DNA from: Saccostrea cucullata
Taxonomy: Eukaryota
Reading direction: 5' to 3'
Length of the DNA: 64,000 bases
Assembly: GCF_032062105.1 (NCBI RefSeq)
Contig: NW_026935861.1
Coordinates: 62,001 to 126,000 of the forward strand
Shown in pieces: positions 30,808 to 56,509 of the stretch (its first letter is position 1; every line of letters starts with the position of its first letter). The position numbers and the translations under genes were made by a program. The notes beneath the pieces are model-generated. The model saw only the letters and a program-made list of their open reading frames with translations, made no database searches and had not been told where the DNA came from.

Positions 30808-33800
30808 TTATTTTGGCGGGGTAAGAACGTCATCAATCACGTGAAGGCAGCCATTTGCAAGAGGAATATCAGCATCGATGACCTGTGCAGTCTTCACATA
30901 AACACCTGAAACAGGACAATTATAATCAGTAACATAAATCTTAGATTTCACGAATAATACGGATCTAAGTTGTCGGTATATATGTATTGAAATATTTGAC
31001 TTTATTACTTATTTCTCCTTTTGTTGTCTCGGCTTGCGGTGGTGCTTATTTCCAAGTTTTGGCTTTTATTTCATAAATTCAATTATTTATTTATTCTTTT
31101 TTATGAAATTGTTACACATAAAAGATGTAAGTGGTTATCATGTGTACGACATTTCAGCAGGAAACACAGATTAGCTTTGTGCCACTTAATAATGTAACAA
31201 AATAAATTTGTCAAAATAAAATCGTTGATCGTTGGCTCCACTTTTTTCTTTCTAATTCAAAACAATGGTTTAATTAGAAAAAAAAGTGAAGCCAACGATT
31301 GGTAAAATACCTGATCCGGGTAAACTAATTGTAAGGTTTGTTCCAGCGAGAGTGGGAAGGGTCATCCCGTCCGTCAGTCCGGCGGAGAACCACACCCCCG
31401 GAACCACGTGGTACATCAGGATCTCTGTGAAATAAACATAATTTAGTTACAGGTTCAAATACAAATATGGCTTTAACAATATTTTTATTAGGTAAACATA
31501 CTTTTGAAATATGCGTCATCAGCGGTGATACTGGGTAAATTGGCCAAAATCTGGGCAAATGCACTGTCCTTAGGAGCAAAAATAGTATAGGTACCCGCTG
31601 GAAAATAGATTGATTATGTATATATAATTCATCCTTAAAGCAAGAAGCGTTATATCTAATGTTTTATTTTTGTTTTGCTGTTTTGAATCAAATCTTCAGT
31701 AGCGACTAAGGAAACAATAACATCGAAGGTCATTGTTTGATAATGAATGTATGAACCTCCCGCAAAGAAGTAGCTAATGAGGGAGAAAAGCAGACATCTC
31801 AGGAAATCGAGAGGATGAAGAGACTTATTATTTATAATCTTCGTAGTTTAATCAGGTTATAAATTGATATTTACATTTGCAAATATCTTTCTTAGATGAA
31901 TCTGTTGAGGAGAAAATACGTTCAATTTTGTGTGAATTTCATTTGGGGGTCAGAGGTCATAGCGCGACCGGATCACAGAGCGTGGTGATATTTTGACCAA
32001 ACAACTTCTAGGTCATTGCGCGGCACTACATACCAATACGTTGGCCCGTTCATGTAATAAATACAATTTAACTTGAAATGTATTCGTTTCAAATGTAAAT
32101 ATAAGTAATAAACAACAATGTTAAAAAGTTCACTGGGAAATGAACTTTTAGTTGGTACATTATCAAATCTACCGAGAAGCCCTTCGGGCTTCACAGGATT
32201 TGATCACGTGACCAACTAAAAGTTCATTTCCTAGAGAACTTTTTAACATTGTTGTTTATTTCTTAATTAAATTTTTTTACTTCAGCATTTTGATTATGTC
32301 ATCATATAAATGTGGCAAAAAAACTTGTATCATAAGCTTACTATCCTGTCAGAAACTCAGACCCAGTAATTATTTATCTCTTGCCTAACAAGTTCAAATT
32401 GTCTTCTTTCAAAAGACAATCAGACACAGACATGACCCACTTTCTAATGGTTTCTCCAGTCCTTCCAAAACAAGTGCAGCGTATAGGTCGGAGAACTGAG
32501 TCTCGTGTGTACCGAGGTATTCAGAAATGGTGACGTCCGCGGGCATCAAAACACTGTTTATAGGATGAACTACTCCGTTCAGAACAATCTTGTCTCCACC
32601 ATCGATCTCCACGCCTTGGATGACAAATTTCTAAAAAATATAAACGTTAAAGATGCTTACCTTTATGGCAATTTATTTTAGAGTTTAAAAATAGAAATAT
32701 CTTCCAACTTTTAAGAGATTTCTCTCATTTTAAAGAAATATCTCTATGAGAAGGAAATATCTCTTAAACTTAGAGAGATATCTCTTATACGTAGAGAGAT
32801 GTCTCTTTATATAAGAGAGATATCTCTTCCATTTGAATAGATATCTCTTTTTCCTTTAAAGATATCTCTTTCGCGAAAAGAGATATCTCTGAACGTTAAA
32901 AAAGATATCTCTGAATGCTAAAGAGATATCTCTTTCACCTATAGAGATATCTCTTTTACTTTTGGAGATATCTTTCCAAGTATAAGAGATATCTCTTAAA
33001 GTAAAAGAGATATTTCTTAAAGTAAAAGAGATGTCTCCTTATTGCAAAGAGCTATCTCTCTTCATTATTTTTATTTAAATCCCATTTGAAATTACTTTTC
33101 TCCTTACCGGAAGTAAGCTTTTAATTCACGGAAGTACATTAAAGTATTTTAAAATTTCGACATATACATGATATTCTACATTATAGCTTTACTAAACATG
33201 AAAAGTACTTCAGTGTTTCCTAGATTTCAAATTAGTAATTGTTTATTATATCATAAGCTGAGGAAATTCGGTCCATTGCATTTAAGATTTTATGCTTACT
33301 TTCGTTTTACTGAATATTAAACTTTTAGCATTTTTATCAACGAAGTTGCCATTATTATTTGTTGTTTCAAACAAGGGATTTATAGCATTTTTGTCTAAAT
33401 GGTACATATATTCGGGATATTGCATGCTCAGTCTTTTTTTATAACAGCAAAATTAGTACAGAGATTTTACTACCTGTTTCGCTTTCGTTTTAAAGAGGAG
33501 AATTGATTATTTTATTTTAAGGATGACTGGAAAAGACATATCTCTTTCATTAAAAGAGATATCTCCTTAGCTTAAAAAGATATCTCTTTTTGAAAATCTA
33601 AAGAGATATCTCTCTAACTAAGATAGATATCTCTTTTAACCTTTTTAAGAGATCTCTCTCTCTCGCTTAAAGAGATAGCTTTCTCGCTGAAAGAGATATC
33701 TCTCAAGCTGATAAAGATATCTCTCTTAGTAAAAGAAATATCTATATTACAAAAAGAGATATCTATTTTGTTTAAAGAGATATCTCTTTCGGATATAAGG

Positions 33801-35365
33801 ATACCTCTATTAGTCAAAGTTAAAGCAATATGAGCTGCATTTTTGAGAATTTTATTTTGCTGGTAAAATGTGTTATTATGATTAATTTGTATGTAATTTA
33901 AACCTTTCTGATCAATAAGACCGAAATAAATTTTAAAAATGTCTCAGAAGAAATGTTTCTGTACGATCGAATATACAGTATTATATAAGGTATCATTATT
34001 GTACAGGACGACAATAATGCAATTTTGCTTCAATCGAAGCTTATAAAAAGGTCTTCCATCGCAAATATGAACAACAGAGGTTCATAAATGCTCTATTTTT
34101 CGGTCATTGAAATAGTTAATTACAAATTTGCAAAAAAAAATTTCGATGTATAACATGCAGCTCATATTGCTTTAAAGATATATCTCTCTATGCTAGAGAG
34201 ATATCTCTTACTGAAAGATTTTTTTTAAAATTTCATGAATAGTAAAAGGTCTTGCCATATATCTTGGTTATAGTGAACTTTCAGATAAATTCATGTTAAA
34301 TTTTTGTTGTGATGTTGAAGGAGGCCATGTATTTTAACCAAGCTTAACATATTTTTCCGAAGAACGAATTTATTTTAATATGTTTTTTGGTTAGGAATAT
34401 GAGAATCCTTTGCACTCGGGTAAGATAAAAGGGAAGACTAAGCAAAGCCTAAACATACTCTAAAATTAATAATTAATTATTCTTTATTTATAATCGAACA
34501 TTTTCAAGAATAAGGCATATAGCAATTATATCTAAAATATGACCATATGTAAAATAATTTTTGACCTCTAAATGATCATACCAGTTGCACTTATATAGAC
34601 TAGACTTCCAGCATAGCTCTTGTAAAGATGAAAGTAAAATACTGTCAAAACAATACATGGACATTGAAGTCAGATCATTTCATCCTAGAATTTGCAAGAA
34701 GCATTGTTTTCTTAACATTTTAACATTTATACAACAAAAAGTGAATAAGTAGTCTGTACAGGAATATCAAAACATGTCATTAGACTTGATTATTGTGATT
34801 ATCATTAATTTGAAGCTATGAAACATCTTTAAAACTCCCAACCTGATTATCGTACCGATGAGCGGTCAGATTTTTTCCAGACAGTGTTGTGAACACTTTT
34901 CCGTCCTGTAGCATGGGTGATATAACAATTCCACTAGTCACGTGGAATTTAAGTGTGTCTGCCAGAGCCTGGGGGTCTCCACTCAGTCGGTCCAGTACAC
35001 TCTGGGGGAGCTTAGCAAAGGCGGCATCGGTGGGGGCAAATATGGTCAGCGGGGTCGCTTAAGCAATATAGGGTGATTGTTTTAGGTCTATATCAGAGAT
35101 GTTGAACATAGTACACGAACTTTAAACTGTTCTTTAACTTATTACAGGTAAATTCAAAATTTGATACAAACCAATTGCTCTAGATTTGAATATTGTACAG
35201 AAACAAACCTGATGTAGCTAAGGTTCCAGCCAAACCCGATTGCTTTAACAATTTAACTAGTGTCGTAAAGTTTCCTTGGTTTTGCAAGTAGGTGAAAACA
35301 TTTTCCAATTGTCCATGAACAAAAAGACTTTGGAGGGAGAAGACTGTGACTAATAGGGCTAACAT
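30808..35365 (-). CDS. Secreted two-FAS1 domain protein C (289 aa)
   Basis: Exons 35365-35209, 35057-34843, 32630-32441, 31597-31502, 31424-31311, 30905-30808 (870 nt). Signal peptide MLALLVTVFSLQSLFVHG; PLTIFAPTDAAF, LKFHV, NGVVHPINSVL, YTIFAPKDSAF, LMYHVV, NGCLHVIDDVL. Confidence 0.9.
32106..32261. repeat. Fold-back hairpin MITE (~50-bp arms)
   Basis: AATAAACAACAATGTTAAAAAGTTC...AGTTGGT pairs with ACCAACT...GAACTTTTTAACATTGTTGTTTATT. Confidence 0.8.
32664..34259. mobile_element. Non-autonomous DNA transposon with subterminal arrays of the palindrome AGAGATATCTCT
   Basis: Ends TATGGCAA...TTGCCATA; arrays at ~32710-33060, 33530-33810 and 34176-34210. Confidence 0.7.
33824..34171. mobile_element. 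Nested TTAA-specific MITE (Kolobok-like termini)
   Basis: 17-bp perfect TIR AGCAATATGAGCTGCAT, with TTAA on both sides (33820-33823, 34172-34175). Confidence 0.85.
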
Positions 35366-36413
35366 GTTGACGATCAAGTGCACTCCCAGTTTGTAGGGTT
35401 GAGCCTGATAACAGAACTGTATACAATAATCTCCCGCGGAGGTCACGATCTTATTCCACATTACGTATGTAACAGACGACTTCATGAATTTCATATTGTT
35501 CTGCTCTCTTAACCTTACTTTAATGTCACGTTATTATGAAATAATAATAGCTCGAGAAGTTTTTTTTCTAAAATCAGCTTTGTACATGATAACATTTGCT
35601 ATTTTACAAATCCTGATATAAACTTTAAAAGTACAGTTAAGGCGCACTTTTTAAAAAACTCAAATTAATTCAAATTAACGTCACATTGTTACATTGCAAA
35701 AGTGTGTAACGAGGTAACAAAATATATTTTAGAAAAGATTGTTTGGGTTACTTTTAATTTATTTCACTAAATTAAACATAATTCGCTCATAATAATTGGT
35801 AGGACTTTGATATGCTCATGGCTGACATAACTTGTTATTTACAATATCACTAGGTTAAAAAGCATTCTAATTCTACACACTAGAACTCTGAAGTTCTTTG
35901 AAGTTCCTCCTTGACAATATATGTTATGTTTATTACTAGGTTTTCCAAAAACTTGGAATTCCGATGACCTTATGTTTCTTTCAGAGACGATCGTTTTTGT
36001 AACTTTTACACGAGAAAAACTGCTAAGGCCTTTAGTTTTAACATATCTTTATTAATTAAATATAACAACGTTTATGTGTAAAATTGAAATAACCTTTTTG
36101 AATTCGAAATAAAAGTCACAACACAGCCTGTCATATCTGTTCCATGCTTGATTGATACTCACTGAATATGTTAAATGTAAAAACTATACCATTATTAGCT
36201 ATTGCAGAGAAAAATAAATTAAACCGAGTTATTTTTTTGTTACAGTTGGAACATTTATTCAAATACATATATAAATTTTATGATTCGGTATTTTCAATTA
36301 TGCCAAAGTGATCTTTGTCAAGAATCTCTTGTGAAATAAAAGATTTAAGAAAACTTATAAAAAATACATAAAATGAAAATAATAAATACTTGTAGATATT
36401 CGATTTAAGGTTA

Positions 36414-38480
36414 TCAAAATATATCAAAAGTCACGTCTTTAGATTGGTTTGTAATTATATCACGAGCGGTCACCCTCAACTCTGTCTCCCCAAAAAAGAG
36501 TGTTACCTCAACCTCGGAGCGGGGAGATTCCGGAGTTTTTCTTGAAACAGGTGCCCTGAGTGTGCCCAGCAGTTCACATCCAGGGTCATCGACGAATTTT
36601 GGATCTTTCTCAGTCGAAATATAAACAGCACATTAAAGTATGGTATCGTCATCATGAAGAGGACGGAATATTGAGACTTAGAAAACCCGAGAGGGATCTG
36701 CTGTCCCTTCTGAACGAAGGGGAAAAAGACATCCTTACACCGATTCATTCCGCTGACCTCGAATTTCTTCGATTGTGGATGAATGGTCGGCTTAAATTCT
36801 GGCCATGTTTGAATGCCGTATGTAAACCTTGCCACTCTTCGAGAAATAGAATCTGGCACGTGACCGAAGTACACGGCTCGCTCCCTTGACAACGGCAAGC
36901 CCTGCTTCGGTCGGTACAATAACTTTTTTGTTTGGAAAATTGTCGATAATGGCCTTTTGAACAAGTTTACACTCGGAAAAAACCACCTACCATTAGAATA
37001 TTATGAACATCTCTCACATTTTCTTCTTCAAATAATTCGTCAACATGCTTTACTATGCTTTCAATAGTTTTTAGAAAAAATGTCTTTTTAAAAAAGTTGA
37101 GATCCCACTTTAATTTTCCCACAAAATATGTCACATTGTCTTTTTGAGGTGAAAGTTCTATAGCAGAAGGAAAGTCCTTAACATTTCTGCTTTCTTTGCA
37201 AAATTCAACAAAAGACAAGGGTATTCTTACATGGATTTTCCCCGTCATATCGGGATAACGCTACGTTTTGTTACTTCGAATGTTCGTAAAATATCTAAGT
37301 AATCCTCCAAACTTTGCTTTTTGTATTTTGACATTGTTCCGTCCCCGCTTATGTCTTCCAAAAAGCGAATGAAACGATCGTCGACGGATTTTCCTCCCCA
37401 TGGCCCCCACTTGCTGGACTTATTTCTTCTAAAGTGTGGTCCTCACATTTCTTATGTACAGTAATATCAGCAGTACCACCTAAAAAGGAAACCATTCAAT
37501 TCAACTTAATCTGGGTTCATAAAGTACGTTGTACCTAGAAACTGAATGTTCGTTATAAGATATTCAAGATTTTTACCCCCAAGATCTACCACCATATACT
37601 TTTGTTCAGAGTTCAGTACCCCCAGAGTGGCAGATAATTGTTCCTCGTCGTTTGTGAGATGTTGACAATAAATAGATGCTGCTTCGGGCTCCAGTGCAAT
37701 TATAAGTCTCTTTTCTATTCCTGCCTACATTCAACAGAAAACTCATTCAATTAATGGAATAGACAGTGTAGCAATAATTTTCTTATTAGAAAATATTATT
37801 TTTTCTCATAATTTAGGTGGGAAAAAGAAGGGGGACTTTTTGTTATATTGTATGTACCTTTGTAGTTGCATCTCGCATGAAGCGTTTGGCACGATCACCC
37901 CAATTGGCGGGTACCGTCAAAACATACTCTATGGCGTCTTCTTCCATTCCGGGGTCACTTTTCTTAATTTCTTTATATAAATGATCCTTCAGATAACGTA
38001 TACAATGAGTAAAAACTTTAATGGCCGGTAGTGATTTTCCTGATTCATCTTTGCAAAGAATATTATTATTTACTCCCTGAAAAAAATTATATAGACAATT
38101 GTTCGATTGATTTAATATAATTCAGCTATTACATGTATTTAGAAAAAGCAAAATGAAAGTACGTAGGAATACTATACCGGATCTTTGTGAAGAATCATCT
38201 TAAACCGTAGGAAGAAGTAATACTTGTCCTGCTGTTTCTTGGCTGTTAATTGAGAATATTGGTCTTCTGCATCGTAACCAAAGGCCACAAATTTCTGTCT
38301 GGAGTCCAGTAGTAGAGCAGTGGGGGCCTTGTGTGACACCAGTCCCGCACCCTGCCAAAGGTACGTGTACAGCTTCTTCCATTCTTGTGTGAGAGAAAAC
38401 GCGTATCCAGAGTACGTCGTCCCGAAATCTATGGCCGCCACAAATAGGCTTTGGCTTTTGCTTCGGGTGCTCACATCCAT
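36414..38480 (-). pseudogene. HSPA12: HSPA12-like pseudogene (copy A; paralogue of 49173-51229)
   Basis: VAAIDFGTTYSGYAFS motif and the same four-exon layout. Last-exon lesions relative to copy C: 1-nt deletion at ~37405, extra A at ~36980, 4-nt insertion at ~36880, further indels and a stop near 36503. Confidence 0.85.
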
Positions 38481-38537
38481 TTTAGTGTCATTCTCGATCT
38501 CTTCCTTTTTCCTACTTTCGTTTTTGCTACACTAAAT

Positions 38538-39831: not shown

Positions 39832-40594
39832 AAAGGTACTTGGACACAGATTTGGAGGTAATTTTTTCTTTATAATATTACGACTTATATATTTTAATAG
39901 CACTTCACACAAAAATTAATTAAAAATCTTATTTCATTTAAAAGTTATTATAACTTTAAATTTTTTGGCGGGTGTGATTGACACATCCTTGCACTTTCAC
40001 AAATTTTAAGTTTACTCTTAATACTTAGGGAAAGTGGCAGCCTTGTTGTGTGTAGCATGATTATTTTTTTAGCTTTATTATGTTCTTACATTTACTTTTC
40101 TTAATCAGTAGATTTGTATGTTTTTATTATTTTACTTTCATTCGTAGACTAGATTGTTTATCAATGTCTTAACCCAGACTGCGAACAGGTCATGGGGAGC
40201 TGTTAATTAGGCTAGGAGGAGGCTTTATACAATAGTAGTGATTTATAGCATTTAGATCTGATAGCTTGACCTTAGTTTAGTTCAGGGGTGATTAAGAGGA
40301 GCAATGAGAGGAGTCATAAACTATATAAGCAGGGTATTTTTAGGATGATTAGATTTTATTGGGAGTAATTTGAAAGAGTATTTTAATAATGGGAATTTAA
40401 CTTGAGTTATTTTGGGATAATTATTCTAAGTGCCTTTCATTCAATTCTTTATAACATTGATTGGATTATATTTTACTTTCATTTGGATTTAATAAACAAA
40501 ATACTACTATTTTGTGTTTTATTACAAAGAGGAATTATTATCAGGAGCTACCAAAATATGAATGTGAAAAGGATTTACTCGTAAACGCTACAAA

Positions 40595-40612
40595 TGGTGG
40601 CAGCGTCGGGAT
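40595..40612 (+). other. Primer-binding site, most similar to a tRNA-Leu 3' end
   Basis: TGGTGGCAGCGTCGGGAT two nt after the LTR CA; resembles the complement of tRNA-Leu ...ATCCCACCGCTGCCACCA. Confidence 0.75.
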
Positions 40613-41027
40613 TCTTTGGATAATTTGTGAATTTTATTGTGAATCAAAATGGATCTAAACGGACCTTAATTCGCAAATGTGTTGGATTATTGTGATTCTG
40701 AAAATTTGATTTTCATTGGATTTATTTCATTCATATTACTGGATTATTACAAGTGACTTGTGTATCATACTTTTCATAGTTATGAATGTATACAGATTCA
40801 CAAATGTGTATGACTACGATGACAATGGAAACTTAGTGTATATTGGAAGGATTACAATTCATGATAAAAAGGAGTGTTAAAACTGTTATTGTATGTTTAA
40901 AGTGAGTGAGAACCGTTTTTCACTTGTCACGGAAAAAGGAGAAATCAGTGAATTCTTAAAGTGTCCGTTTTGTAACTGCAGGATTAAAGCATATACAAAG
41001 CAGCGTACCATTGAAATGTAAAACATT

Positions 41028-42284
41028 TTGAAAATGGATGAAACTTCGCATTCTTTAATTGATATGGAAATGACAGACTGTGGCAAATCTCCAAACAAGC
41101 AAACTCCTGAATTATTTTCAAGCCCAGCTAGAAGTCCTAAATTACGAAGTACAAACATACGTCGTCGTTTGGAAGATTCATTTGAGAATAGTGAAAATTT
41201 CGCTCCAGAATTTCCACACATGGAACAGCCAATGAATAGTTATGAACTTCAGGAGGAAAAGTATTTTAAACAAGGATCCAGAAATTTAGTTTCATTATTT
41301 TGGATATCCGTGTGTATTATTGGATGTGTTGTTGTGTTTGCTTTGTATCGCTATTTTCCGGGATTGTTGTGTTTGACAAAGGAATTCATCATGTCTGGAG
41401 GAGCATTTGTAGTATTTTCCTCAATCATTGGAATGATGGTGAAATTGGCAAAAAGTACTGAAAGCCCATCTAAAGGGATGGAAACTCAGAGAAATTATCC
41501 AGGGATAGCTAGAGTGAATGGTAAAGGGAGCCAGGATTCATCCTATCAAATTAATTTTAAAAGAACTTTCAAGGGAGATGGAAATGAAATTTGGTGTGAA
41601 TTCATTCGTTATTTTGAAAATATTGCAATTCTTAATAACTGGAGCTTGGATCGTATGAGGAGAGTGTTACTTACTGCTTTACGTGGTCAGGCTGAAACAT
41701 ACGCATATGGTTTACCAGATGACAAAAGAAATAGCTATGATGAGTTGAAACAAGCCATGGAGTATAGATTTGAACACAAGTCAATGAAGGAAAGTTGTGT
41801 TGCAGAGGCAAAACTACGAAGAAAGAAGGAAGGTGAATCGTATAGGGATTTTGCTCAATGTCTGGAGGATTTGTATCGAAGAGCACACCCTGAAAGCCGA
41901 GAGTATGTTCAAGAATGTAGTCTAAAGACTTTCCTTGATAATTGCAGTGAGGTGGAAAATTTTAGGCTTGCAGTTAGAAGAACCAGACCTAAGACATTAC
42001 AAGAAGCGGTAACGGCTGCAATGCAAGAGGAATGCATAAGGATTAGTGAACAGCAAAACAGAGATCCGAAAACCTTGACAAAGCCCAGAATTTATCAAGT
42101 TAGCCAGCCCAATGATGTGAGTAATGGATTTGACAATATGAGACAACATGTGAAGAAGGCTTGCTTCAAATGTAATTCCACACAACATGTTCTAAGGAAT
42201 TGTCCTATCAAAAACAAGGGGAAAATAAGCAGTGCAATAAGTGAACCCGTTAAACAGTTAAACAGCGGGAAACCGAGGCAGTAG
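41028..42284 (+). CDS. gag: Gag with two N-terminal hydrophobic segments, capsid region and CCHC knuckle; probably originally started at ATG 40782
   Basis: FKGDGNEIWCEFIRYFENIA..NNWS..LRGQA, K.RRKKEGESYRDF..LEDLYRRAHP, RPKTLQEAV, CFKCNSTQHVLRNC. Confidence 0.85.
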   Translation: MKMDETSHSLIDMEMTDCGKSPNKQTPELFSSPARSPKLRSTNIRRRLEDSFENSENFAPEFPHMEQPMNSYELQEEKYFKQGSRNLVSLFWISVCIIGCVVVFALYRYFPGLLCLTKEFIMSGGAFVVFSSIIGMMVKLAKSTESPSKGMETQRNYPGIARVNGKGSQDSSYQINFKRTFKGDGNEIWCEFIRYFENIAILNNWSLDRMRRVLLTALRGQAETYAYGLPDDKRNSYDELKQAMEYRFEHKSMKESCVAEAKLRRKKEGESYRDFAQCLEDLYRRAHPESREYVQECSLKTFLDNCSEVENFRLAVRRTRPKTLQEAVTAAMQEECIRISEQQNRDPKTLTKPRIYQVSQPNDVSNGFDNMRQHVKKACFKCNSTQHVLRNCPIKNKGKISSAISEPVKQLNSGKPRQ

Positions 42285-44915
42285 GCCGTGCGTTGGTCGC
42301 TGATATGAATATGCCTTGTACAGAAGAGATAACTCACAGTGATTTACGAGTAATTAATAACAGAGCTCATGAGGATGCGTGTAATACCGATTCTGTGGAT
42401 ATGAAGCTCAATGAAAGTGATTATTGTGATGTTTTTGAAAAGAATACATCTGACATTTTAATTCCAGGAAGGAATGGATTTTTGGTAAATGGTTTAATTC
42501 AGGAAACACCATTAACATGGAAGATTGACACTGGAGCGAGGAAAACTTTCATCACTGAAGAAACATTTTATAGCATTCCTTTGGATAATCGTCCTGTACG
42601 AGAGCAAGTGAAAAGTAAATTCTTATCAGCTGATGGACGTAAACTAAAACTTCTGGGTACTGCTAAAATGATTCTTACTTTGAAGGATGTTGATATTGAA
42701 TTTCGTGTTTTTGTTGGAGGAGTCACACATGATTTATTGGGAGAAGATTTTATTGTGAAGTTCAAGTGTAACTGGAACTATCAACGATGTGCTTTGAGTT
42801 TTACATATGATCAAGAAAAGGATTTGAATGAAGTTTGTCCAACGAGAAAAATTTATAATCAGGATTCTTTGACCATACCAGGGAGACATGAATTTGTTGT
42901 GAGATCTATGGTAATGAATGCTGATGGGACAATTGCAATACCAATGCCTTTGAAAACTTTCATTAGTTCGTATAAATTGGGAGTTGCCAGAACACTTCTT
43001 GATTCAAGCAATACAGAGTTTTACATTCGATTATATAACTCAGAGGACCATGCCATTACAGTACCGAAGCATACTGAAATAGCATTACTTGTACCTGTTA
43101 CATATGTGAGTCAACCAATTTGTGACAAAGGAAAAGTTATATCCACAAGTAGCAAGGGAGAGACTCAAGAATTACCAGAGTACCTGAAAGCAGTCTATGA
43201 AAATGGAATCATAAATTTAAATTCTCGAGCGTCTGAAAAGTTCAAGGAATTTCTCATGGAAAGGAGAAATGTGTTTGCTGACCCAAATGGAGTTTTACAT
43301 AGAACCAACATTGGTGAGCACAGGATAAATTTGAGTGACGGAACGCCGTTTAAGGAGGCGCCGCGGCGGGTTCCATTGTTTAAAAGGGAAATTTTAGATC
43401 AAGAAATAGGGAAACTACTTGATCAGGGAATTATTGAGAAATCCAGCAGTCCATGGTCGTCGCAACTTGTTCTTGTTCAGAAGAAGGATTAAAGTTGGCG
43501 AGATTGTGTGGATTATCGTCGTTTGAATGCGAAGACGATAAAGGACGCATATCCGATACCTAGGATAGATGATAACTTGGATGCATTGGCTGGATCTGTT
43601 TGGTTTTCGTCTTTGGATTTGAATATGTCTTATCACCAAGTGCCGATGTCAGATCAGGACAAGGAGAAAACAGCATTTGCTACACCAAGAGGGGGGTTAT
43701 ATCAGTACAATGTTATGCCTTTTGGATTATGTAATGCTCCAGCGACTTTTCAGAGAATAATTGAAAGAGTATGAAGTGGTCTACAGTGGAATGTAGCTGT
43801 ATTTTATTTAGATGACATCATTGTCTATGGAAAAAGCTTTGATGAGCATTTGGAGAATTTAAAGCAAGTATTGGATAGACTGGAAGATGCTAATTTGAGG
43901 TTGAAAGCAATGTTCATTTTTCGTGAAAGAGGTGTCATTTCTGGGATATGTTGTTTCTAAAAGTGGAATCAAGACAGACCCTGCTAAAACTGAAGCAATA
44001 GAAAATATTTCAACACCAAAGAATGTCACAGAATTAAGGAGTTTTCTAGGATTAGTATCTTACTATCGGAAGTATATTAGAGATTTTGCTTCTATTGCAA
44101 AGTGTTTGCATTCTTTGACTAGCAAAAATAGCAAATGGATATGGACAGAAGAGTGTGACCGAGCTTTTATTGAATTGAAGAAGAAATTACAAAATGCGCC
44201 AATATTAGGATATCCAGATGTCGATGGTGGAAGTTTTATATTAGACACGGATGCAAGTAATGAAGCCATTGGATGTGTTCTTTCTCAAATTCAGGATGGG
44301 AGAGAAAAAGTTATTGCATATGGAAGCAGAACACTGAGCTCAGCTGAGAAAAAATATTGCGTAACGCGAAAGGAAATGTTAGCTCTTATCTACTTTGTGA
44401 AATATTACAAATATTATCTACTAGGAAGAGAATTTATCTTAAGAACAGATCATGGATCTTTAACGTGGCTTCATAAATTCAAAGAGCCAGATGGACAAAT
44501 TTGCCGATGGTTGCAACAGTTAGGACCATATAACTTTACAATTATACATCGGGCTGGAAAACAACATGCAAATGCTGATGCACTCTCAAGATTACCAAAA
44601 GAGGAGTGTAATGAAAATGTGTGTAAACAGTGTAAACAAAAGCATTGTATCTATGATGGTGATTTAGTGACGCGTGTGAAAGATCTGCGTGAAAATTCAA
44701 AGGAGACTATCCAGGTGGCAAATGACATAATCTGTGACATTTTCCAGTTATATAATGTAACAAGTGAGGATGAAGAGAAAAGTGATTCTGAGCCTAAAAC
44801 AGTACCAACTACAAGGAGAAAGCGTAATCGTCCAAAGCGTGCTAAACAACGAGAAATACCAGATTTAGAACTTACATATGAAGAAATTCGTAATCAACAA
44901 GAAAATGACAAGAAT
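42257..44915 (+). pseudogene. pol: Pol (protease, RT, RNase H), disrupted
   Basis: WKIDTGA protease; SPWSS..VQKKD, DYRRLN, MPFGLCNAPATFQR, YLDDII RT; FILDTDAS..RKEMLA..RTDH..NADALSR RNase H. Stops at 43490 and 43772; frameshift at ~43910; no integrase. Confidence 0.9.
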
Positions 44916-45543
44916 TTTACTCGGAAACGCTACATGTGTATAAATGAAAAATATTAATACTATAATCCAGAAAAATCTGAGTAGACATGTTCGAATGCAA
45001 AACAAACACACAATATATTCTCAGTCCGTGCAGTTGTGGTGATTAGACTTTGACGATTGAACGCACCCGGTGAATCGTTAACAATCAACAATAACAAAGC
45101 CCCTGCCCTGTTTACAAAAACTGTGCACATAACACGAGTGTGATCGATTTGCACACAAGACTTAGTTCGGAATGACGGTACTTGTGAAGGAATTTTGCTT
45201 TGTAACATTTCTACTCTGAACAATTTTTTTTCTGGATTTAAGTTTTTATATTTTTTCAATGGGTGGCTCTGTAGCTCTCCGGTCTATCAATATTTTTTTT
45301 CGGAGAGCTACAGATCTGCAGCTAGGTAATACATTGTTGGATGCTATATTTTCAAAAAATTACAATTATTAAAGGATAACTGGAGAAATAGGAAAAGGAT
45401 ACAGTTCTTCTGAATATAGAGCAATATCCCCTAGCTGCAACAAAATAAAATAAATTCAATAAAAGGTTGTATTTCATGTACCTTTTGAAATTTATTAGCA
45501 GTTGAAAAATTTATCTACTTTACTATTTTCCAGTTTTTTTTAA

Positions 45544-47859
45544 ATGGATCAATCTATCAAGAGTAAAAGCAAGAAACTGTTTGTGTCAGCCATTGATTTC
45601 GGAACGACGTACTCCGGATATGCCTTTGCCATTTCCCAGAACTGGCGTAAACTCATGGCTTGTCATTGGCAGGGAGGTGGCCTCATCTCTCACAAGGCCC
45701 CGACTGCCCTACTCCACAAGAAGGCTGGGGGATCAGATCCAGTCTTCGAGGCCTTTGGTTATATAGCTGAGGATCGGTACGCCACGTTGACGGCAAAGAA
45801 GGAACATAAAGATTACCTTTACTTCCAGCGTTTTAAAATGATCCTACATAAAGATTTTCTATGTAATTGCTTTTATGTATACATTTTTCTCTCGTTTATT
45901 ATGCCCCCCTTCGAAGAAGGGAGGGCATATTGCTTTGCTGCTGTCTGTCGGTATGTTGGTCAGTCTGTCGGTCCACTTAGTTTCCGTTCATTTTCTTCAC
46001 AACCGTTGCACAGACTGAAATGAAATTTGGTATACAGATATATCAGATGAAACAAGTTCTGTTTTGGATACGATCGCACCATTTTTGACAGAGTTATGCC
46101 CCTTGGACTTAGAAAAATTCCATTATTTGCAGTTTCCGTTCATTTTCTTTGCAACTGTTGCACATACTGAAATGAAATTTGGTGTAAAGATATATCAGAT
46201 GAATATCTAAATCAAGTTTTGTTTTGGGTACGATCGCACAATTTTTGACAGAGTTATGCCCCTTGGACTGGAAAAATTCCTATTATTTGCAGTTTCCGTT
46301 CATTTTCTTCGCAACTGTTGCACATACTGAAATGAAATTTAGTGTACAGATTTATCAGATGAATATCTAGGTCAAGTTCTGTTTTGGGTACAATTGCGCC
46401 ATTTTTGCCCTTTTGGACTTGGAAAAATTCCAATTTGGGGGGAGGGGGGCATAAGTGTTTTACAAACATCTCTTGTTTGATATATTTAATGGCATTGATA
46501 TTACGATAATGTTGCAACATGACAGACAATCCTGTTCTCCACCTCCCTGCCTATGTGTAGTTTAATGTTATTTTCAGGAAGTCAACAAATCCATAGAATG
46601 TTCAGATATTACTGGTGAGAAGTTAGAGGCCACTCAAGTTTTCACACATTGTATAAGGAACCTAAAGAACCACTTAATAGATAAAATCAACGAAAAGTTC
46701 GCAGCTACCAGTGATAGAGACATTGAGTACGTGTTGACAGTACCAGCAATCTGGGGAGACAAAGTCAAGATGTTCATGAGGGAGGCTGCAGTCAAAGTGA
46801 ATTGATTTTTGGTACACCTTGTTCTGTATTGAATGTACTAAGTACTAGTATTTAGAAATAAAGGATGCATTGTTTTGTTTTTATTTTTGAAACTAAATGC
46901 AGTGTTTTACAATTAAAGTATTATACTTACAGGCTGGAATAGAGAAGGACCACCTGATTATGGCTCTAGAGCCCGAGGCAGCATCTATCTATTGTCAACA
47001 TTTACAGATAGAAAATCTGAGGGACCCTAACGCCAGTGTCCTGAGGACAGTCGGTACTGACACCACATACATGGTAGTTGATTTAGGAGGTGTGTAGAGA
47101 TGCATTCTTCACTGAAAGTTTCACAACGAAAATGATGATTTTTGATTGTCATCATGGCATAAGAATTCATACTTTATTTTGTTAGGTGGTACTGCAGATA
47201 TAACAGTTCACTAGAAATGCATTGACAATACATTGGAGGAAATCATGCCAGCCAGTGGGGGCCCTTGGGGTTAAAAGTCAGTAGACGACAAATTTATTGA
47301 TTTCCTGAGTTAGGAGGCAAAGAAGTTTTGAAACTGCTGAAGGAAAGAAATATGAAGGATTATGTAGACATTTTAAGAACATTCGAAAGGACAAAACGAG
47401 ATATAACGCTTGAAAAGAAAGGAAATATCTTTTTCCGTATACCACTTTCCTTCATTGACCCGTGCAAAAAAGAGAATAACCTAGATGGTTTTAGCCAAGT
47501 AATTAAGAAATCAGCCCACAAAGATAATGTGAGTTACGGTCCAGGTAAGCTAAAAATGGCTGCAGACTTTGTCAGGGGGTTCTTCAAGAAAACTTCTGAT
47601 GGAATCTTAAAACATATTGAGGATTTGTTTAATGAGGAAGCCGTCAGAGATGTCAACCACATTCTCATGGTGGGTGGATTTTTTGAATGTAAGCTAATTC
47701 AAAAGGCTATAAAAGATAATTTTCCAGAGAAAAATGTCATCATTCCAGAAGAGTCTGGGCTTGCTATTTTGTATGGTGCCGTTTACTTTGGACACATTCC
47801 AGATGCTATATCTAGGAGAGTTGCAAGGTTTACCTACGCAATTCAAACATGGCCTAAAA
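45544..47859 (+). pseudogene. HSPA12: HSPA12-like pseudogene (copy B; paralogue of 54372-56509), 3'-truncated
   Basis: Intron-1 donor GT>CT; HINE insertion in intron 1; stops at ~47212 and ~47272; small deletion at ~47305; homology to copy D ends after IQTWPK. Confidence 0.88.
45899..46476 (+). mobile_element. HINE-type element with ~160-bp tandem repeats
   Basis: TATGCCCCCC / GGGGGGCATA subterminal inverted repeat, GTCTGTCG microsatellite, GAGTTATGCCCCTTGGACT at 46091 and 46251, 3' hairpin; absent from copy D intron 1. Confidence 0.85.
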
Positions 47860-47888
47860 TAAAAACACCTACTATACATTTTCCCATT

Positions 47889-48473
47889 CAAAGAACTATA
47901 TGCGGTATATTGCATATACTTGCCCCCACAAAAGTTACATTTTGAAAACTTCATGAAATGTGCTGAATTCAATAAATTGTATGAGAAATATAAATTAACA
48001 GAACATATTATAGTTTCAAAGCAGTTTATTCACAATTTTTGTTTTTATGACGTCAAAACCTAGTCCAATTTTAGAATTTTTTTCAGAAAGAGGACAAAAT
48101 GGACAAAATTTCAACAATTTAAGCTTTTAAATATATAGAGCGCATGTTTGTTCAGGATTTATATTTACATATTTCATTGATATTATCATTCTAAACATTA
48201 TATCAAAATATTGATCCTGAACACACATGCGCTCGGTGACTTTTACTCAAAATATCGACGAAATATGTACATTTTTCTGTATAATTCATTAAAAACTGAA
48301 ATTTACGTCATGTTTGTGACGTCATTACGTACATATGACGTCATTACTTATGAAAATATTCAGTGCTTTGAAGTCAGCATATACTCCCCTGTTTAAGAAC
48401 TTAATTAAATATACCTCCATCAAAGTTTGATTTGGGGGGGCAAATATTGGTTATTACCGAATAAAGTTCTTTG
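47889..48473. mobile_element. MITE, same family as 4729-5323
   Basis: TIR CAAAGAACT(A/T)TAT(G/T)CGGTA; near-identical interior. Confidence 0.85.
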
Positions 48474-49172
48474 ATAAATTAACACATTTTAAAAATAATT
48501 AAAAATCATAGGTATCCAGGCTTTTGAAGAAATTCCACAATTTTTTATACATATAATGTACGTTAATTTCTGTTATTTACTTTGAACATTTGAAAATGCA
48601 AAGTGTCTAAAGGTTCTCCTGTCATTGCAAAGCTCCATAAATGACGTCTAATTTCATAATCATGTCAATAAACATTGGTATCTATGGTTAGGTTAAAATG
48701 AACATCAGTTTCTTGATATATGTAATTTTAAAATGCTTTTACGGGGTTAAACATTCGACTTTTTATTAGTCCTTTTTAAGAACTTCAAAGAACCTTGAAG
48801 CACATTAAGAGATATATAATGAAAATTGTTGCATGAAAAGATTTGATTTTCAAGATTCAGTTTGAGACTTTTTGAATTAAATTATGAAATAAAGAGTCGT
48901 CCTTCCTGAGGATCGGGGTCCCTTCACGTAAAACTATGCCATTATTCAATATTGCAGAGAAAAATGCATAAATCGAGTAATTTTATGCTACAGTTACAGT
49001 TGTAACATTTATTCAAATACTAGTATATAAGATTTACTATTCAGTATTTTCAACTCTGCCAAAGTGATCATTGTCAAGAATCTTTAGTGAAATAGAAGAC
49101 TTAGGAAAATTTATAGAAATAAAAGGATAATGAATAAATAATAAATACTTGTACATATCCCATTTGAGTTTA

Positions 49173-51229
49173 TCAAAATATATCAAAAGTCACGTCTTTA
49201 GATTGGTTTGTCATTATATCACGAGCGGTCACCCTCAACTCTGTCTCTCCAAAAAAGAGTGTCTCCTCAACCTCAGAGCGGGGAGATTCCGGGGTTTTTC
49301 TGGAAACAGGTACCTGAAGTGTGCCCAACAGTTCACACCCAGGGTCATCGACGAATTTTGGATCTTTCTCACTTGAAATATATACAGCACATTCAAGTCT
49401 GGTGTCGTCATCATGGAGAGGACGAAATATCTGAGACTTAGAAAACCCGAGAGGGATCTGCTGTCCCTTCTGAACGAAGGGAAAAAAGACATCCTTACAC
49501 CGATTCATTCCGCTGACCTCGAATTTCTTCGATTGTGGATGAATGGTCGGTTTAAATTCTGGCCATGTTTGAATGCCATATGTAAACCTTGCCACTCTTC
49601 GAGAAATAGCATCTGGCACGTGACCGAAGTACACGGCTCCCTTGACAACGGCAAGCCCTGCTTCGGTCGGTACAATAACTTTCTTGTTTGGAAAGTTGTC
49701 CATAATTGCCTTTTGAACAAGTTTACACTCGGAAAAACCACCAACCATTAAAATATTACGAACATCTCTCACATTTTCTTCTTCAAATAATTCGTCAACA
49801 TGCTTTACTATGCTTTCAATAGTTTTTTGGAAAAATGTCTTTTTAAAAAAGTTGACATCCCACTTCAATTTTCCCGTAACATATTTCACGTTGTCTTTGT
49901 GAGGTGAACGTTCTATAGCAGAAGGAAAGTCCTTAACTTTTCTGCTTTCTTTGCAGAATTCAACAAAAGACAGGGGTATTCTTACTTGGATCTTCCCCGT
50001 CTTTTCGGGCGAAACGCTACGTTTTGTTACTTCGAATGTTCGTAAAACATCTAAGTAATCCTCCAAACTTTGTTTTTTGTATTTTGACATTGTTCCGTCC
50101 CCGCTTATGTCTTCTAAGAAGCGAATGAAACGATCGTCGACTGATTTTCCTCCCCATGGCCCCCCACTTGCTGGACTTATTTCTTCTAAAGTGTGGTCCT
50201 CACATTTCTTATGTACAGTAATATCAGCAGTACCTCCTAAAAAGGAAACCATTCAATTCAACTAAATCTAGGTTCATAAAGTACGTTGTACTTAGAAACT
50301 GAATGTTCGCTATAACATATTCAAGATTTTTACCCCCTAGATCTGCCACCATATACTTTTGTCCAGAGTTCAGTACACCCAGAGTGGCAGATAATTGTTC
50401 CTCGTCGTTTGTGAGATGTTGGCAGTAAATAGATGCTGCTTCAGGCTCCAGTGCAATTATAAGTCTCTTTTCTATCCCTGCCTACATTCAACACAAAACT
50501 CAGTCAATTAATGGAATAGACAGTGTAACAATAATTTTTTTATTAGAAATTTTTTTTCTTTTAATTTAGGTGGGAAAAGAAGAGAGGTTATTGTTATATT
50601 GTATGTACCTTTGTAGCTGCTTCTCTCATGAAGCGTTTGGCACGATCACCCCAAATGGCAGGTACCGTCAGAACATACTCTATGGCGTCCTCTTCTGTTC
50701 CGGGGACACTTTTCTTAATTTCTTTATATAAATGATCCTTCAGATAACGTATACAATGATTAAACACCTTAATGGCTGGTAGTGATTTTCCTGATTCATC
50801 CTCGCAAAGAATATTCTTATTCACTCCCTGAAAAAAATTATAAAAACGATATGTTGTTTCTCTAAATATATCAGCTATTACATGTAGTTACAAAAAGCAA
50901 AATGAAAGTACGTAGGAATACTATACTGGATCTTTGTGAAGAATCATCTTAAACCGTAGGAAGAAGTAATACTGGTCCTGTTGTTTCTTGGCCGTTAATT
51001 GAGAATATTGGTCTTCTGCATCGTAACCAAAGGCCACAAAGTTCTGACTCGAGTCAAGTAGTAGAGCCGTGGGGGCCTTGTGGGACACCAGTCCCCCTCC
51101 CTGCCAATGGTACGTGTAAGGCTTCTTCCAGTCTTGTGTGAGAGAAAATGCGTAACCAGAGTACGTCGTCCCGAAATCTATGGCCGCCACAAACAGGCTT
51201 TGGCTTTTGCTTCGAATGCTCACATCCAT
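49173..51229 (-). CDS. HSPA12: Heat shock 70 kDa protein 12-like (copy C, intact, 577 aa)
   Basis: Exons 51229-50927, 50827-50609, 50481-50334, 50236-49173 (1734 nt). AAIDFGTTYSGYAFS, VLTVPAIW, ALEPEAASIYC, DLGGGTADITVH, ASGGPWGG, LMVGGFSEC, AVVKGAV.FG, RVARFTYG, FGETEL. Confidence 0.92.
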
Positions 51230-53552: not shown

Positions 53553-54371
53553 ACCTTTAACTGGTTATGACCCAGAAAAAAATGTGGTACAAAGCCAATA
53601 TTCATATTAGCAATACCAGTCTTTAAGTGTACATATTTCAACATATTGTTCTTTGACTTTATGATAAGTACGTACATTTTATAAATGAAAGAAAACTTGT
53701 ATATGTTTATGGCTAAAAGTGGATTTAATACTACAGTTTCAAAGAGATTCACTGAAAACAACAAACTTTTTCAAACCGAAAGTTGATTAATGATCGATGA
53801 GTTATGGACTTTAAATCTCAATAAGGAACGTATAATGTAAGTATGTGTTGACTTAATATTTATACAGTCATTTTTTCCCGGATGCATATTCAGGACTCCA
53901 TCGATACTCTTTTTTATCTTTATGTTATTAGAGTAATACATTTGGCAGAATATTTTAACCGATTAGCGTACTATATTTCGCTGTGCATTTTGTAACCGAT
54001 AAGTGTATTACATTTGGCTGTGTATTTTGTAACCGAGTAGAGTATTACATTTGGCTGTGTATTTTGTAACCGATTAACTGCTTAGTCAGTAGAAATGTTC
54101 TCTTTTGTAAGTTGAATAATTGCTTTGAAGTACGGTAATTAATATATTGTTGGATGCTATACAGTGTATTTTTATTTAAACAATTACAATTATTAAAAGA
54201 TAACTGGAGAAATAGGAAAAGGATACAGTTCTTCTGAATACGGAGCAATATTCCTTAGCGGCAACAAAATAAAATAAATTCAATAAAAGGTTCTTTGTAT
54301 TTCTTGTACCTTTTAAAAATCAATAGCAGTTGAAAAATTTATCTACTTTAACTATTTTCCAGTTTTTTTAA

Positions 54372-56509
54372 ATGGATCAATCTATCAAGAGTAAAAGTAA
54401 GAAACTGTTTGTGGCAGCCATTGATTTCGGAACGACGTACTCCGGATATGCCTTCTCCATTTCCCAGAACTGGCGCAAACTCATGGCTTGTCATTGGCAG
54501 GGAGGTGGCCTCATCTCTCACAAGGCCCCGACTGCCCTACTTCTCAAGAAGGCTGGGGGATCAGACCCAGTCTTCGAGGCCTTTGGTTATACAGCTGAGG
54601 ATCGGTACGCCACGTTGACGGCAAAAAAGGAACATAAAGACTACCTTTACTTCCAGCGTTTTAAAATGATCCTACATAAAGACTTTGTATGTAATTGCTT
54701 ATATGTATATAACTTTCTCTCGTTTATTTAATATATTTAATGGCATTGATATTTCATTAAAGTTGCAACATGACAGACAATCCTGTTCTCTACCTCCCTG
54801 CCTATGTGTAGTTTAATGTTATTTTCAGGAAGTCAACAAATCCATAGAATGTTCGGATATTACAGGTGAGAAGTTAGAGGCCACTCAAGTTTTCATGCAT
54901 TGTATAAGGTATCTAAAGGACCACTTAATAGATAAAATCAACGAAAAGTTCGCGGGTACCAGTGATAGAGACATTGAGTACGTGTTGACAGTACCAGCAA
55001 TCTGGGGAGACAAAGCCAAGATGTTCATGAGGGAGGCTGCAGTAAAGGTGAATTGAATTTTGGTTAACCTTGCTATGCATTGAATGTACATGTATTTAGA
55101 AATCAGTAATTTTTTGTTTTTATTTTTATTAATATTTTGGAATTGAATGCAGCCTTTTACATTTAACTGACGCAGCTTTATTAAACTTACAGGCTGGAAT
55201 AGAGAAAGACCACCTCATTATGGCTCTAGAGCCCGAGGCAGCATCTATCTATTGTCAACATTTACAGATAGAAAATCTGAGGGACCCTAACGCCAGTGTC
55301 CTAGGGTCAGTCGACAATGGAACCACATACATGGTTGTTGATTTAGGAGGTGTGTATACACTGTAGATGCAGTCTTTACTGGAATCTTCACAAAGAAATG
55401 ATGATTCTTGATTGTTATAAAGGCATAAAAACTCATACTTTATTTTGTTAGGTGGTACTGCAGATATAACAGTTCACAAGAAATGCATTGACAATACATT
55501 GGAGGAAATCATGCCAGCCAGTGGGGGTCCTTGGGGTGGAAAGTCAGTAGACGACAAATTTATTGACTTCCTTTCAGAGTTAGGAGGCAAAAAAGTTCTG
55601 AAACTGTTGAAGGAAACTAATATGGAGGACTATGTAGACATTTTAAGAACCTTTGAAAGGACAAAACGAGCTATAACGCTTGAAAAGAAAGGAAATGTCT
55701 TTGTCCGTATACCACTTTCCTTCATTAACCTGTGCAAAAAAGAGAATAATCTAGATGATTTTAGCCAAGTAATTAAGAAATCGCCCCACAAAGAAAATGT
55801 GAATTACGGTCCAGGTAAGCTAAAAATGACCGCAGATTTTGTCAGGGGGTTCTTCAAGAAAACATCCGATGGCATCGTAAAACATATTGAGGATTTATTT
55901 AACGAGGAAGCCGTCAGAGATGTCAACCACATTCTCATGGTGGGTGGATTCTCTGAATGTAAGCTAATTCAAAAGGCTATAAAAGATAATTTTCCAGAGA
56001 AAAGAGTCATTATCCCAGAAGAGTCTGGGCTTGCTATTTTGTATGGTGCTGTTTACTTTGGACACATCCCAGATGCTATATCTAGAAGAGTAGCAAGGTT
56101 TACCTACGGGATTCAAACTTGGCCTAAATTTGATTCTAAGACACACAGAAAGGAAAAACAAGTTGATATTAAAGGAGAAAAGCGCTGCAAGGATGTTTTC
56201 TTCAGTTTCGTACGAAAAGGTGAACAAATATCCAACAGCTTTTCTAAATCGCAGATCTTTCGACCTCTTCACACAGAGGACGCCATACTTGAGTGCGGAA
56301 TTTTCGTTTCTACAGAAAAGAATCCGGAATATGTAGATGATGCCAGCTGCCGTCGCCTTGGTACGCTACGAGTTTCTCTCCCAAAAGTTTCGGATGCAAC
56401 TCAGCTAGAGATAGAGGAAACGTTCTACTTCGGCGAGACAGAGCTTCGTGTCGTTGCTCGTGACGTCATCAGCAATTTATCCCAGGACATTGTCGTCGAA
56501 CTATTATAA
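54372..56509 (+). CDS. HSPA12: Heat shock 70 kDa protein 12-like (copy D, intact, 582 aa)
   Basis: Exons 54372-54686, 54829-55047, 55193-55349, 55452-56509 (1749 nt); same HSPA12 motifs as copy C. Confidence 0.92.

Follow-up and report, generated by a model that had tools for sequence, protein, structure and literature searches.

The Ty3/Gypsy retrotransposon at positions 40051–44934 (forward strand) of the window, the 64,000-nucleotide stretch of Saccostrea cucullata DNA analyzed here, is a decayed copy of an env-less clade in which Gag carries two hydrophobic helices N-terminal to the capsid. The two helices are real and clade-wide, and they are predicted to form a membrane hairpin. Ty3/Gypsy Gag is generally regarded as soluble, with env or, in recent work, small fusogens taken to account for membrane functions. 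From the sequences and the structural models, we consider it probable that the Gag of this env-less clade assembles its capsid at the cytosolic face of a host membrane via the predicted hairpin.

The element belongs to Ty3/Gypsy by every feature tested. TG...CA LTRs, a tRNA primer-binding site (PBS), and a target-site duplication are all present, and the order of protease, reverse transcriptase, RNase H, then integrase (PR-RT-RH-IN) was found by Pfam in two related copies, the integrase of the window copy being deleted. Three of the four fetched genomic loci bearing the complementary 3′ end are tRNA-Leu genes. The window contains no N between 39000 and 46000, and a paralogous stretch at 53553–54728 without the element represents an empty site. 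The longer copies are composed of an LTR, the tRNA-Leu PBS, a small upstream ORF (sORF0), Gag, pol in the −1 frame, a C2H2 ORF3, and a second LTR, with LTRs of about 350–560 bp that are mostly 94–100% identical. Within Gag, a disordered tail is followed by a helix, a loop of 11–27 residues, another helix, a linker, the capsid, and the knuckle. The features of the window copy are listed in Table 1. Elsewhere in the window, paralogous genes that bear the IDFGTTYSGYAF motif are clustered in tandem at 36377–38531, 45467–50252, and 54140–55871; Pfam gave no named match for these paralogues, which are presumably HSPA12-like. Arrays of 21-bp units with internal inverted symmetry are located at 32730–34217.

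Table 1. Features of the decayed element copy, in window coordinates.
Feature	Position	Strand	Basis or remark
Target-site duplication, 4 bp	left 40047..40050, right 44935-44938	+	sequence
5′ LTR (TG...CA)	40051..40592	+	match to both LTRs of related copies
Primer-binding site, tRNA-Leu type	40595..40613	+	complementary 3′ end
sORF0, separate 79-codon ORF, predicted four-cysteine zinc beta-ribbon	40782..41021	+	private stop 40878, true stop 41019-41021
gag, 416 aa, open in the window copy, start 41034	41034..42284	+	
RRxLxxxF-type linear motif, conserved, in the disordered N-terminal tail of Gag	41160..41183	+	
Predicted membrane helix 1	41286..41342	+	KD 2.72; AlphaFold2, conservation
Predicted membrane helix 2, with a nearly invariant basic residue after it	41385..41441	+	KD 2.02
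Capsid domain	41571..42062	+	AlphaFold2 block means 83-98; Foldseek
Single CCHC zinc knuckle	42162..42203	+	
Putative −1 frameshift heptamer in the gag/pol overlap; conserved GC-rich segment behind it	42257..42263	+	
pol (PR, RT, RNase H)	42254..44912	+	stops 43490, 43772; frameshift near 43905; integrase deleted
3′ LTR remnant end, ~22 bases	44913..44934	+	integrase, ORF3, and most of the LTR deleted in the window copy

The helices were called from Kyte-Doolittle (KD) windows together with AlphaFold2 models. Both hydrophobic segments of the original prediction were located in Gag, as 19-residue hydrophobic runs flanked by conserved Trp, Tyr, Pro, and Lys. When the window Gag was shuffled 2000 times, not a single shuffle contained two 19-residue windows with a KD value of at least 2.0, and 21 contained one. 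In the AlphaFold2 model of Gag, the helices span residues 82–107 and 113–142 between disordered stretches, with the capsid following. The best Foldseek match of the capsid is the PNMA2 capsid (E 4.3e-4), then Arc; the match of Gag to the Pfam Ty3_capsid family lies below the cut-off. Identity at codon positions 1/2/3 over 12 lineages amounts to 0.45/0.62/0.35 in the hairpin compared with 0.39/0.42/0.30 in the next linker. We used only this codon-position pattern, because the pN/pS values were uncorrected and the synonymous sites saturated.

The mean net charge is +2.0 after helix 2, where K or R is found in 61 of 62 aligned sequences, but only +0.3 ahead of helix 1 and +0.6 for the loop, so the positive-inside rule backs the topology from one side only. 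A hairpin with both flanks in the cytosol, as originally proposed, fits these sequence features, except that the zinc-ribbon-like domain assigned to one flank is encoded by a separate upstream ORF (see below). The loop is short with a near-invariant Pro (55/62), and Cys, Ser, and Gly are conserved within the helices, all of which would also suit a monotopic hairpin, with both helices residing in one leaflet and bending or targeting membranes rather than spanning them. Such an arrangement, presumably akin to reticulon-, caveolin-, or lipid-droplet-type hairpins, appears improbable in view of the charged loop (Glu in 51/62), which lengthens to 22–27 residues in distant members, as expected if it crosses to the far side. 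Of 78 homologues, 48 have an RRxLxxxF-type motif in the disordered tail preceding the hairpin, where shuffles give an expectation of 0.4, and 68 have an S/T-P-basic site there; we assume that the two resemble cyclin-docking and CDK sites.

A Gag profile identified 113 homologues among 5353 candidates; searched against 1.84 billion representatives, it produced 6206 matches at E ≤ 0.001, the best 150 of which were examined. We defined a hairpin by two hydrophobic windows 28–46 residues apart, in proteins whose capsid is preceded by 150 residues or more. Among the matches listed, 81 of 88 close homologues keep both hydrophobic segments, compared with three of 25 distant ones, and seven of the 25 have at least one helix. 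The closest named homologues among the matches listed are from Mytilus coruscus and Mizuhopecten yessoensis, and two named M. coruscus proteins bear both helices. For a capsid tree, 78 rows were chosen; in this tree, calculated from 146 columns and showing long branches, all 62 helix-labeled rows and one helix-less row fall on one branch (support 100/99); three of the 62 labels denote one strong window with a weaker second one recognized by eye. Judged by these sequence comparisons, helix-bearing Gag is a trait that a large clade has conserved, even though the window copy is dead.

The original prediction had also placed a Cys-rich domain at the N-terminus of Gag. ATG 40782 indeed shares the gag frame, which is interrupted by TAA at 40878 and 41019, and the quoted peptides, the capsid, the CCHC knuckle, and the 25-residue spacer between the Cys pairs are all present. 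Decay explains the stop at 40878, which is private to the window copy, but not the one at 41019, because an equal stop occurs in all five near-identical copies (L001–L005). The Gag N-terminus matched 63 of 92 candidates in a search of the oyster's own genome. Among 104 loci examined, 94 have the Cys ORF and 10 do not; a clean helix-bearing frame accompanies it in 63 of the 94, and the remaining 31, broken or truncated, were left unscored. None of the 63 scorable copies is fused: 30 have both parts in the same frame with a stop between them and 33 have them in different frames. The continuous ORF expected of intact relatives was not found; the upstream frame is not kept, and offsets of 0, +1, and +2 all occur. 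Stand-alone relatives of the Cys ORF numbered 45 among 695 database candidates in a search limited to 39–140 residues. Because of this limit, we inspected the proteins from the Gag searches for the Cys domain, which was found in none of 284 (control scores E 2e-32). The Cys domain is best read as a separate, conserved upstream ORF of 79 residues with its own stop, sORF0, and not as part of Gag.

One long protein joining the zinc ribbon to Gag by readthrough, frameshifting, or splicing could still be envisaged for the window's lineage, in which sORF0 and gag share one frame at a distance of 12 nt. We give it very little chance: the absence of fusion in all 63 copies and 284 proteins strongly disfavors it, the frame offset varies even among close relatives, no GT-AG splice-type joint was detected in 8 runs, and one unspliced contig runs through the LTR, sORF0, and gag. 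Coverage of the element by five contig sets is flat and may derive from DNA. Three oligo-dT runs, each read to about 45% (11–13 million reads), contributed 74, 59, and 75 reads on a 7.9-kb copy and zero reads over sORF0 or the helices. Most RNA reads on the element come from an unrelated 576-bp repeat inserted in the integrase region (L031:7094–7671), and we rejected this read pile as a sign of element expression.

The identity of sORF0 at codon positions 1/2/3 (0.66/0.70/0.42 across 12 lineages) shows a coding pattern, and its structural model is all-beta with four Cys and a mean pLDDT of 75. Every Pfam match was below the cut-off, and Foldseek returned none at E < 0.001. The best structural comparison in VIA reached a Z of 2.8, among many zinc fingers, and one of 34 members matched an unnamed PHROGs family. 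We assign no named family or fold, the TFIIS/RPB9-type zinc ribbon included, as Pfam, PHROGs, Foldseek, VIA, and, via a homologue, the ESM Atlas offered weak zinc-finger or unnamed phage look-alikes only. When capsids were split into a main and a second group by rank and frame length, sORF0 was present 5′ of 73 of the 75 main-group capsids and 0 of 32 second-group capsids. A context scan of other species gave three relatives and no loci in metagenomes and none in the viral scan. Five loci (L015, L021, L022, L061, and L062) have a second small ORF with three Cys pairs between the PBS and sORF0; it is related to sORF0 (pairwise E 7e-5) and occurs in at least two lineages. The leader and sORF0 of L006–L011 are about 90–95% identical to those of L001–L005, far above the identity of about 60% in Gag, which suggests recombination between the two lineages near the gag start.

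In other lineages, Gag may additionally be translated from an upstream CUG. A hydrophobic in-frame extension of 18–30 codons precedes the Gag AUG in 29 of 63 scorable copies, starting with CTG in 28 and GTG in one, and all 29 have A at −3. At the level of lineage representatives, eight of 12 possess the extension (L015, L018, L027, L062, L063, L064, L066, and L067), directly 5′ of the gag ATG and with a conserved His, and all eight start with CTG. As background, CTG makes up 44 of 342 Leu codons (12.9%), and codon usage is mixed at three invariant Leu columns of the capsid. The extension, which is lacking in the window's lineage, has a coding pattern as well (0.54/0.69/0.42). It resembles the initiation of glyco-Gag and could give rise to a putative isoform; alternatively, the conserved CTG could be part of a conserved RNA signal.

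At the gag/pol junction, a TTAAAY heptamer is found in 11 of 12 lineages with pol in the −1 frame; the stem has no unusual stability by folding energy alone (z = −1.3). The env position of longer copies is taken by ORF3, a protein of 190–300 residues with two C2H2 fingers, an acidic middle, and a conserved C-terminal segment, which passed the Pfam zf-C2H2 cut-off in four of five cases tested. ORF3 contains no hydrophobic window, and no env-like ORF was found in the longer copies examined, which bears out the original description of an env-less element with a conserved two-helix Gag. Errantiviruses are defined by an env with signal peptide, ectodomain, and membrane anchor, where we find a C2H2 protein; MDG1-type sORF2/FAST systems are defined by a short single-pass membrane ORF 5′ of gag, where we find the all-beta, four-Cys sORF0. 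The element is neither an errantivirus nor an MDG1-type sORF2 system. ORF3 of L033, L035, L040, L061, and L065 contains a conserved, sometimes repeated acidic YEDISSDEE-type motif, which presumably recalls CK2-phosphorylated co-repressor motifs.

In the second group of capsids, the hairpin is retained, the knuckle is lacking, and the Gag start closely follows the primer site; sORF0 was not detected when 22 loci were scanned directly. An apparent lack of ORF3 in the group (0/32) was dismissed, as the copies are internally deleted and ORF3 of L133 and L134 is too divergent for the query; a C2H2 ORF3 is present where the 3′ part survives, namely in these two loci. At L133:5663–9223, ORF3 and the end of pol are in one open frame, which may reflect a natural fusion or a lost stop. 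The capsid tree does not support a status of the second group as a sister clade. Sixteen of the 22 second-group loci are LTR-Gag-LTR units in which the LTRs enclose no pol, and in most of them the Gag frame is open and helix-bearing. These Gag-only units, without knuckle and pol, measure about 2.1–2.6 kb between LTRs of 91–100% identity, and L053–L058, L060, and L136–L143 constitute a young non-autonomous family.

Taking the element as a whole, assembly at the ER membrane is the most likely reading. The hairpin would do the job of the retroviral matrix domain. Gag and frameshifted Gag-Pol would insert into the ER with both ends cytosolic. Because the anchor is N-terminal to the capsid, like matrix in retroviruses, the shell would curve the membrane around itself as it grows, the simplest site being the ER or the nuclear envelope. 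The element protease might then cut the variable linker and free the core, followed by reverse transcription and integration in the same cell. sORF0 would be an accessory zinc-ribbon protein produced from the same RNA, with Gag reached by reinitiation or leaky scanning, and ORF3, with two C2H2 fingers and an acidic region, is likely a transcriptional regulator of the LTR. The choice of membrane, the protease cleavage, and the functions of sORF0 and ORF3 are our inferences.

The anchor geometry, which would favor envelopment, also suits a Gag that buds from the plasma membrane or into vesicles, giving enveloped particles that would pass from cell to cell or animal to animal without env; the CUG isoform of other lineages would then aid release or entry, as glyco-Gag does. 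The CTG start in all eight lineages having the extension speaks for this export, as does the precedent of env-less spread by Drosophila MDG1 elements, according to the part of that report available (10.1101/2025.03.14.642691). We nevertheless consider export rather unlikely. No fusogen candidate was found: env is missing, and sORF0 is an all-beta Cys protein rather than a membrane peptide of the FAST type. Inspection of alignment A1 by eye showed no conserved late-domain motif, and the window's lineage has no CUG extension. Assembly at the ER membrane remains our preferred reading, the one-leaflet hairpin and the fused protein being less likely; ER assembly, export, and the one-leaflet hairpin partly overlap.

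For a large clade, the sequences predict a main Gag that is itself an integral membrane protein, and retrovirus-like accessory genes lie at either end of the element. This would represent a new route for capsid envelopment, and it provides a way to approach the question of how elements without env might travel from cell to cell or host to host. Two uncharacterized families of small proteins and a naturally occurring example of conserved, putative CUG initiation come with it. More speculatively, and on balance doubtful, this could be an ancient “complex” env-less Ty3/Gypsy clade that came to enveloped particles in its own way, with an integral-membrane Gag wrapping the capsid in host membrane. 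Gag would be assisted by a CUG-started isoform akin to glyco-Gag, by an accessory protein with a zinc ribbon, and by a transactivator with C2H2 fingers; Gag-only satellites would ride along, and the particles would move between cells or animals. If true, the spread of retrotransposons among aquatic invertebrates would gain a concrete mechanism.

In the searchable full-text literature, with few subscription journals and outside Repbase and Dfam, including the available parts of PMC13524379, PMC10294476, and PMC8556966, we found no description of a Gypsy Gag with membrane helices or of sORF0 and a C2H2 ORF3, although supplements to mollusc and annelid surveys may name the clade. Mollusc Ty3/Gypsy elements (C-, AB-, and MolGy clades; PMC6238403) likewise have LTRs, a tRNA PBS, a gag comprising capsid and knuckle, and PR-RT-RH-IN, without env; the two-helix Gag, the upstream Cys ORF, and the C2H2 ORF3 distinguish the elements reported here. 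The clades in that survey are defined by RT/RNase H, and the words “transmembrane,” “zinc,” and “ORF” do not appear in the text portion at hand. Bdelloid LTR elements have likewise captured a non-env ORF3 at the env position; as far as the obtainable text goes, those ORF3s encode esterases, exonucleases, or membrane proteins, and “zinc” is not mentioned (PMC5408684). Drosophila MDG1/412 elements are also env-less, with one or two short ORFs between the PBS and gag. Their membrane helix resides in sORF2 and their sORF1 is a predicted helix-turn-helix protein, as given in the part seen of that source (10.1101/2025.03.14.642691), whereas the elements described here have Cys-rich beta sORFs and the helices in Gag. 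The Gag of zebrafish BHIKHARI, a young element family, is membrane-associated; its membrane binding is ascribed to a coiled-coil domain, and the term “transmembrane” is absent from the available excerpt (10.1101/2024.03.25.586437). A parallel in membrane insertion and initiation is the glyco-Gag of MLV, a membrane-inserted form of Gag, started at an in-frame upstream CUG that is matched in sequence by the extension of eight other lineages here. According to the sections available, glyco-Gag is an accessory isoform beside soluble Gag, glycosylated and exported to the surface (PMC3042739), whereas the present clade has the helices within the very Gag that starts at AUG, with a capsid predicted to be cytosolic.
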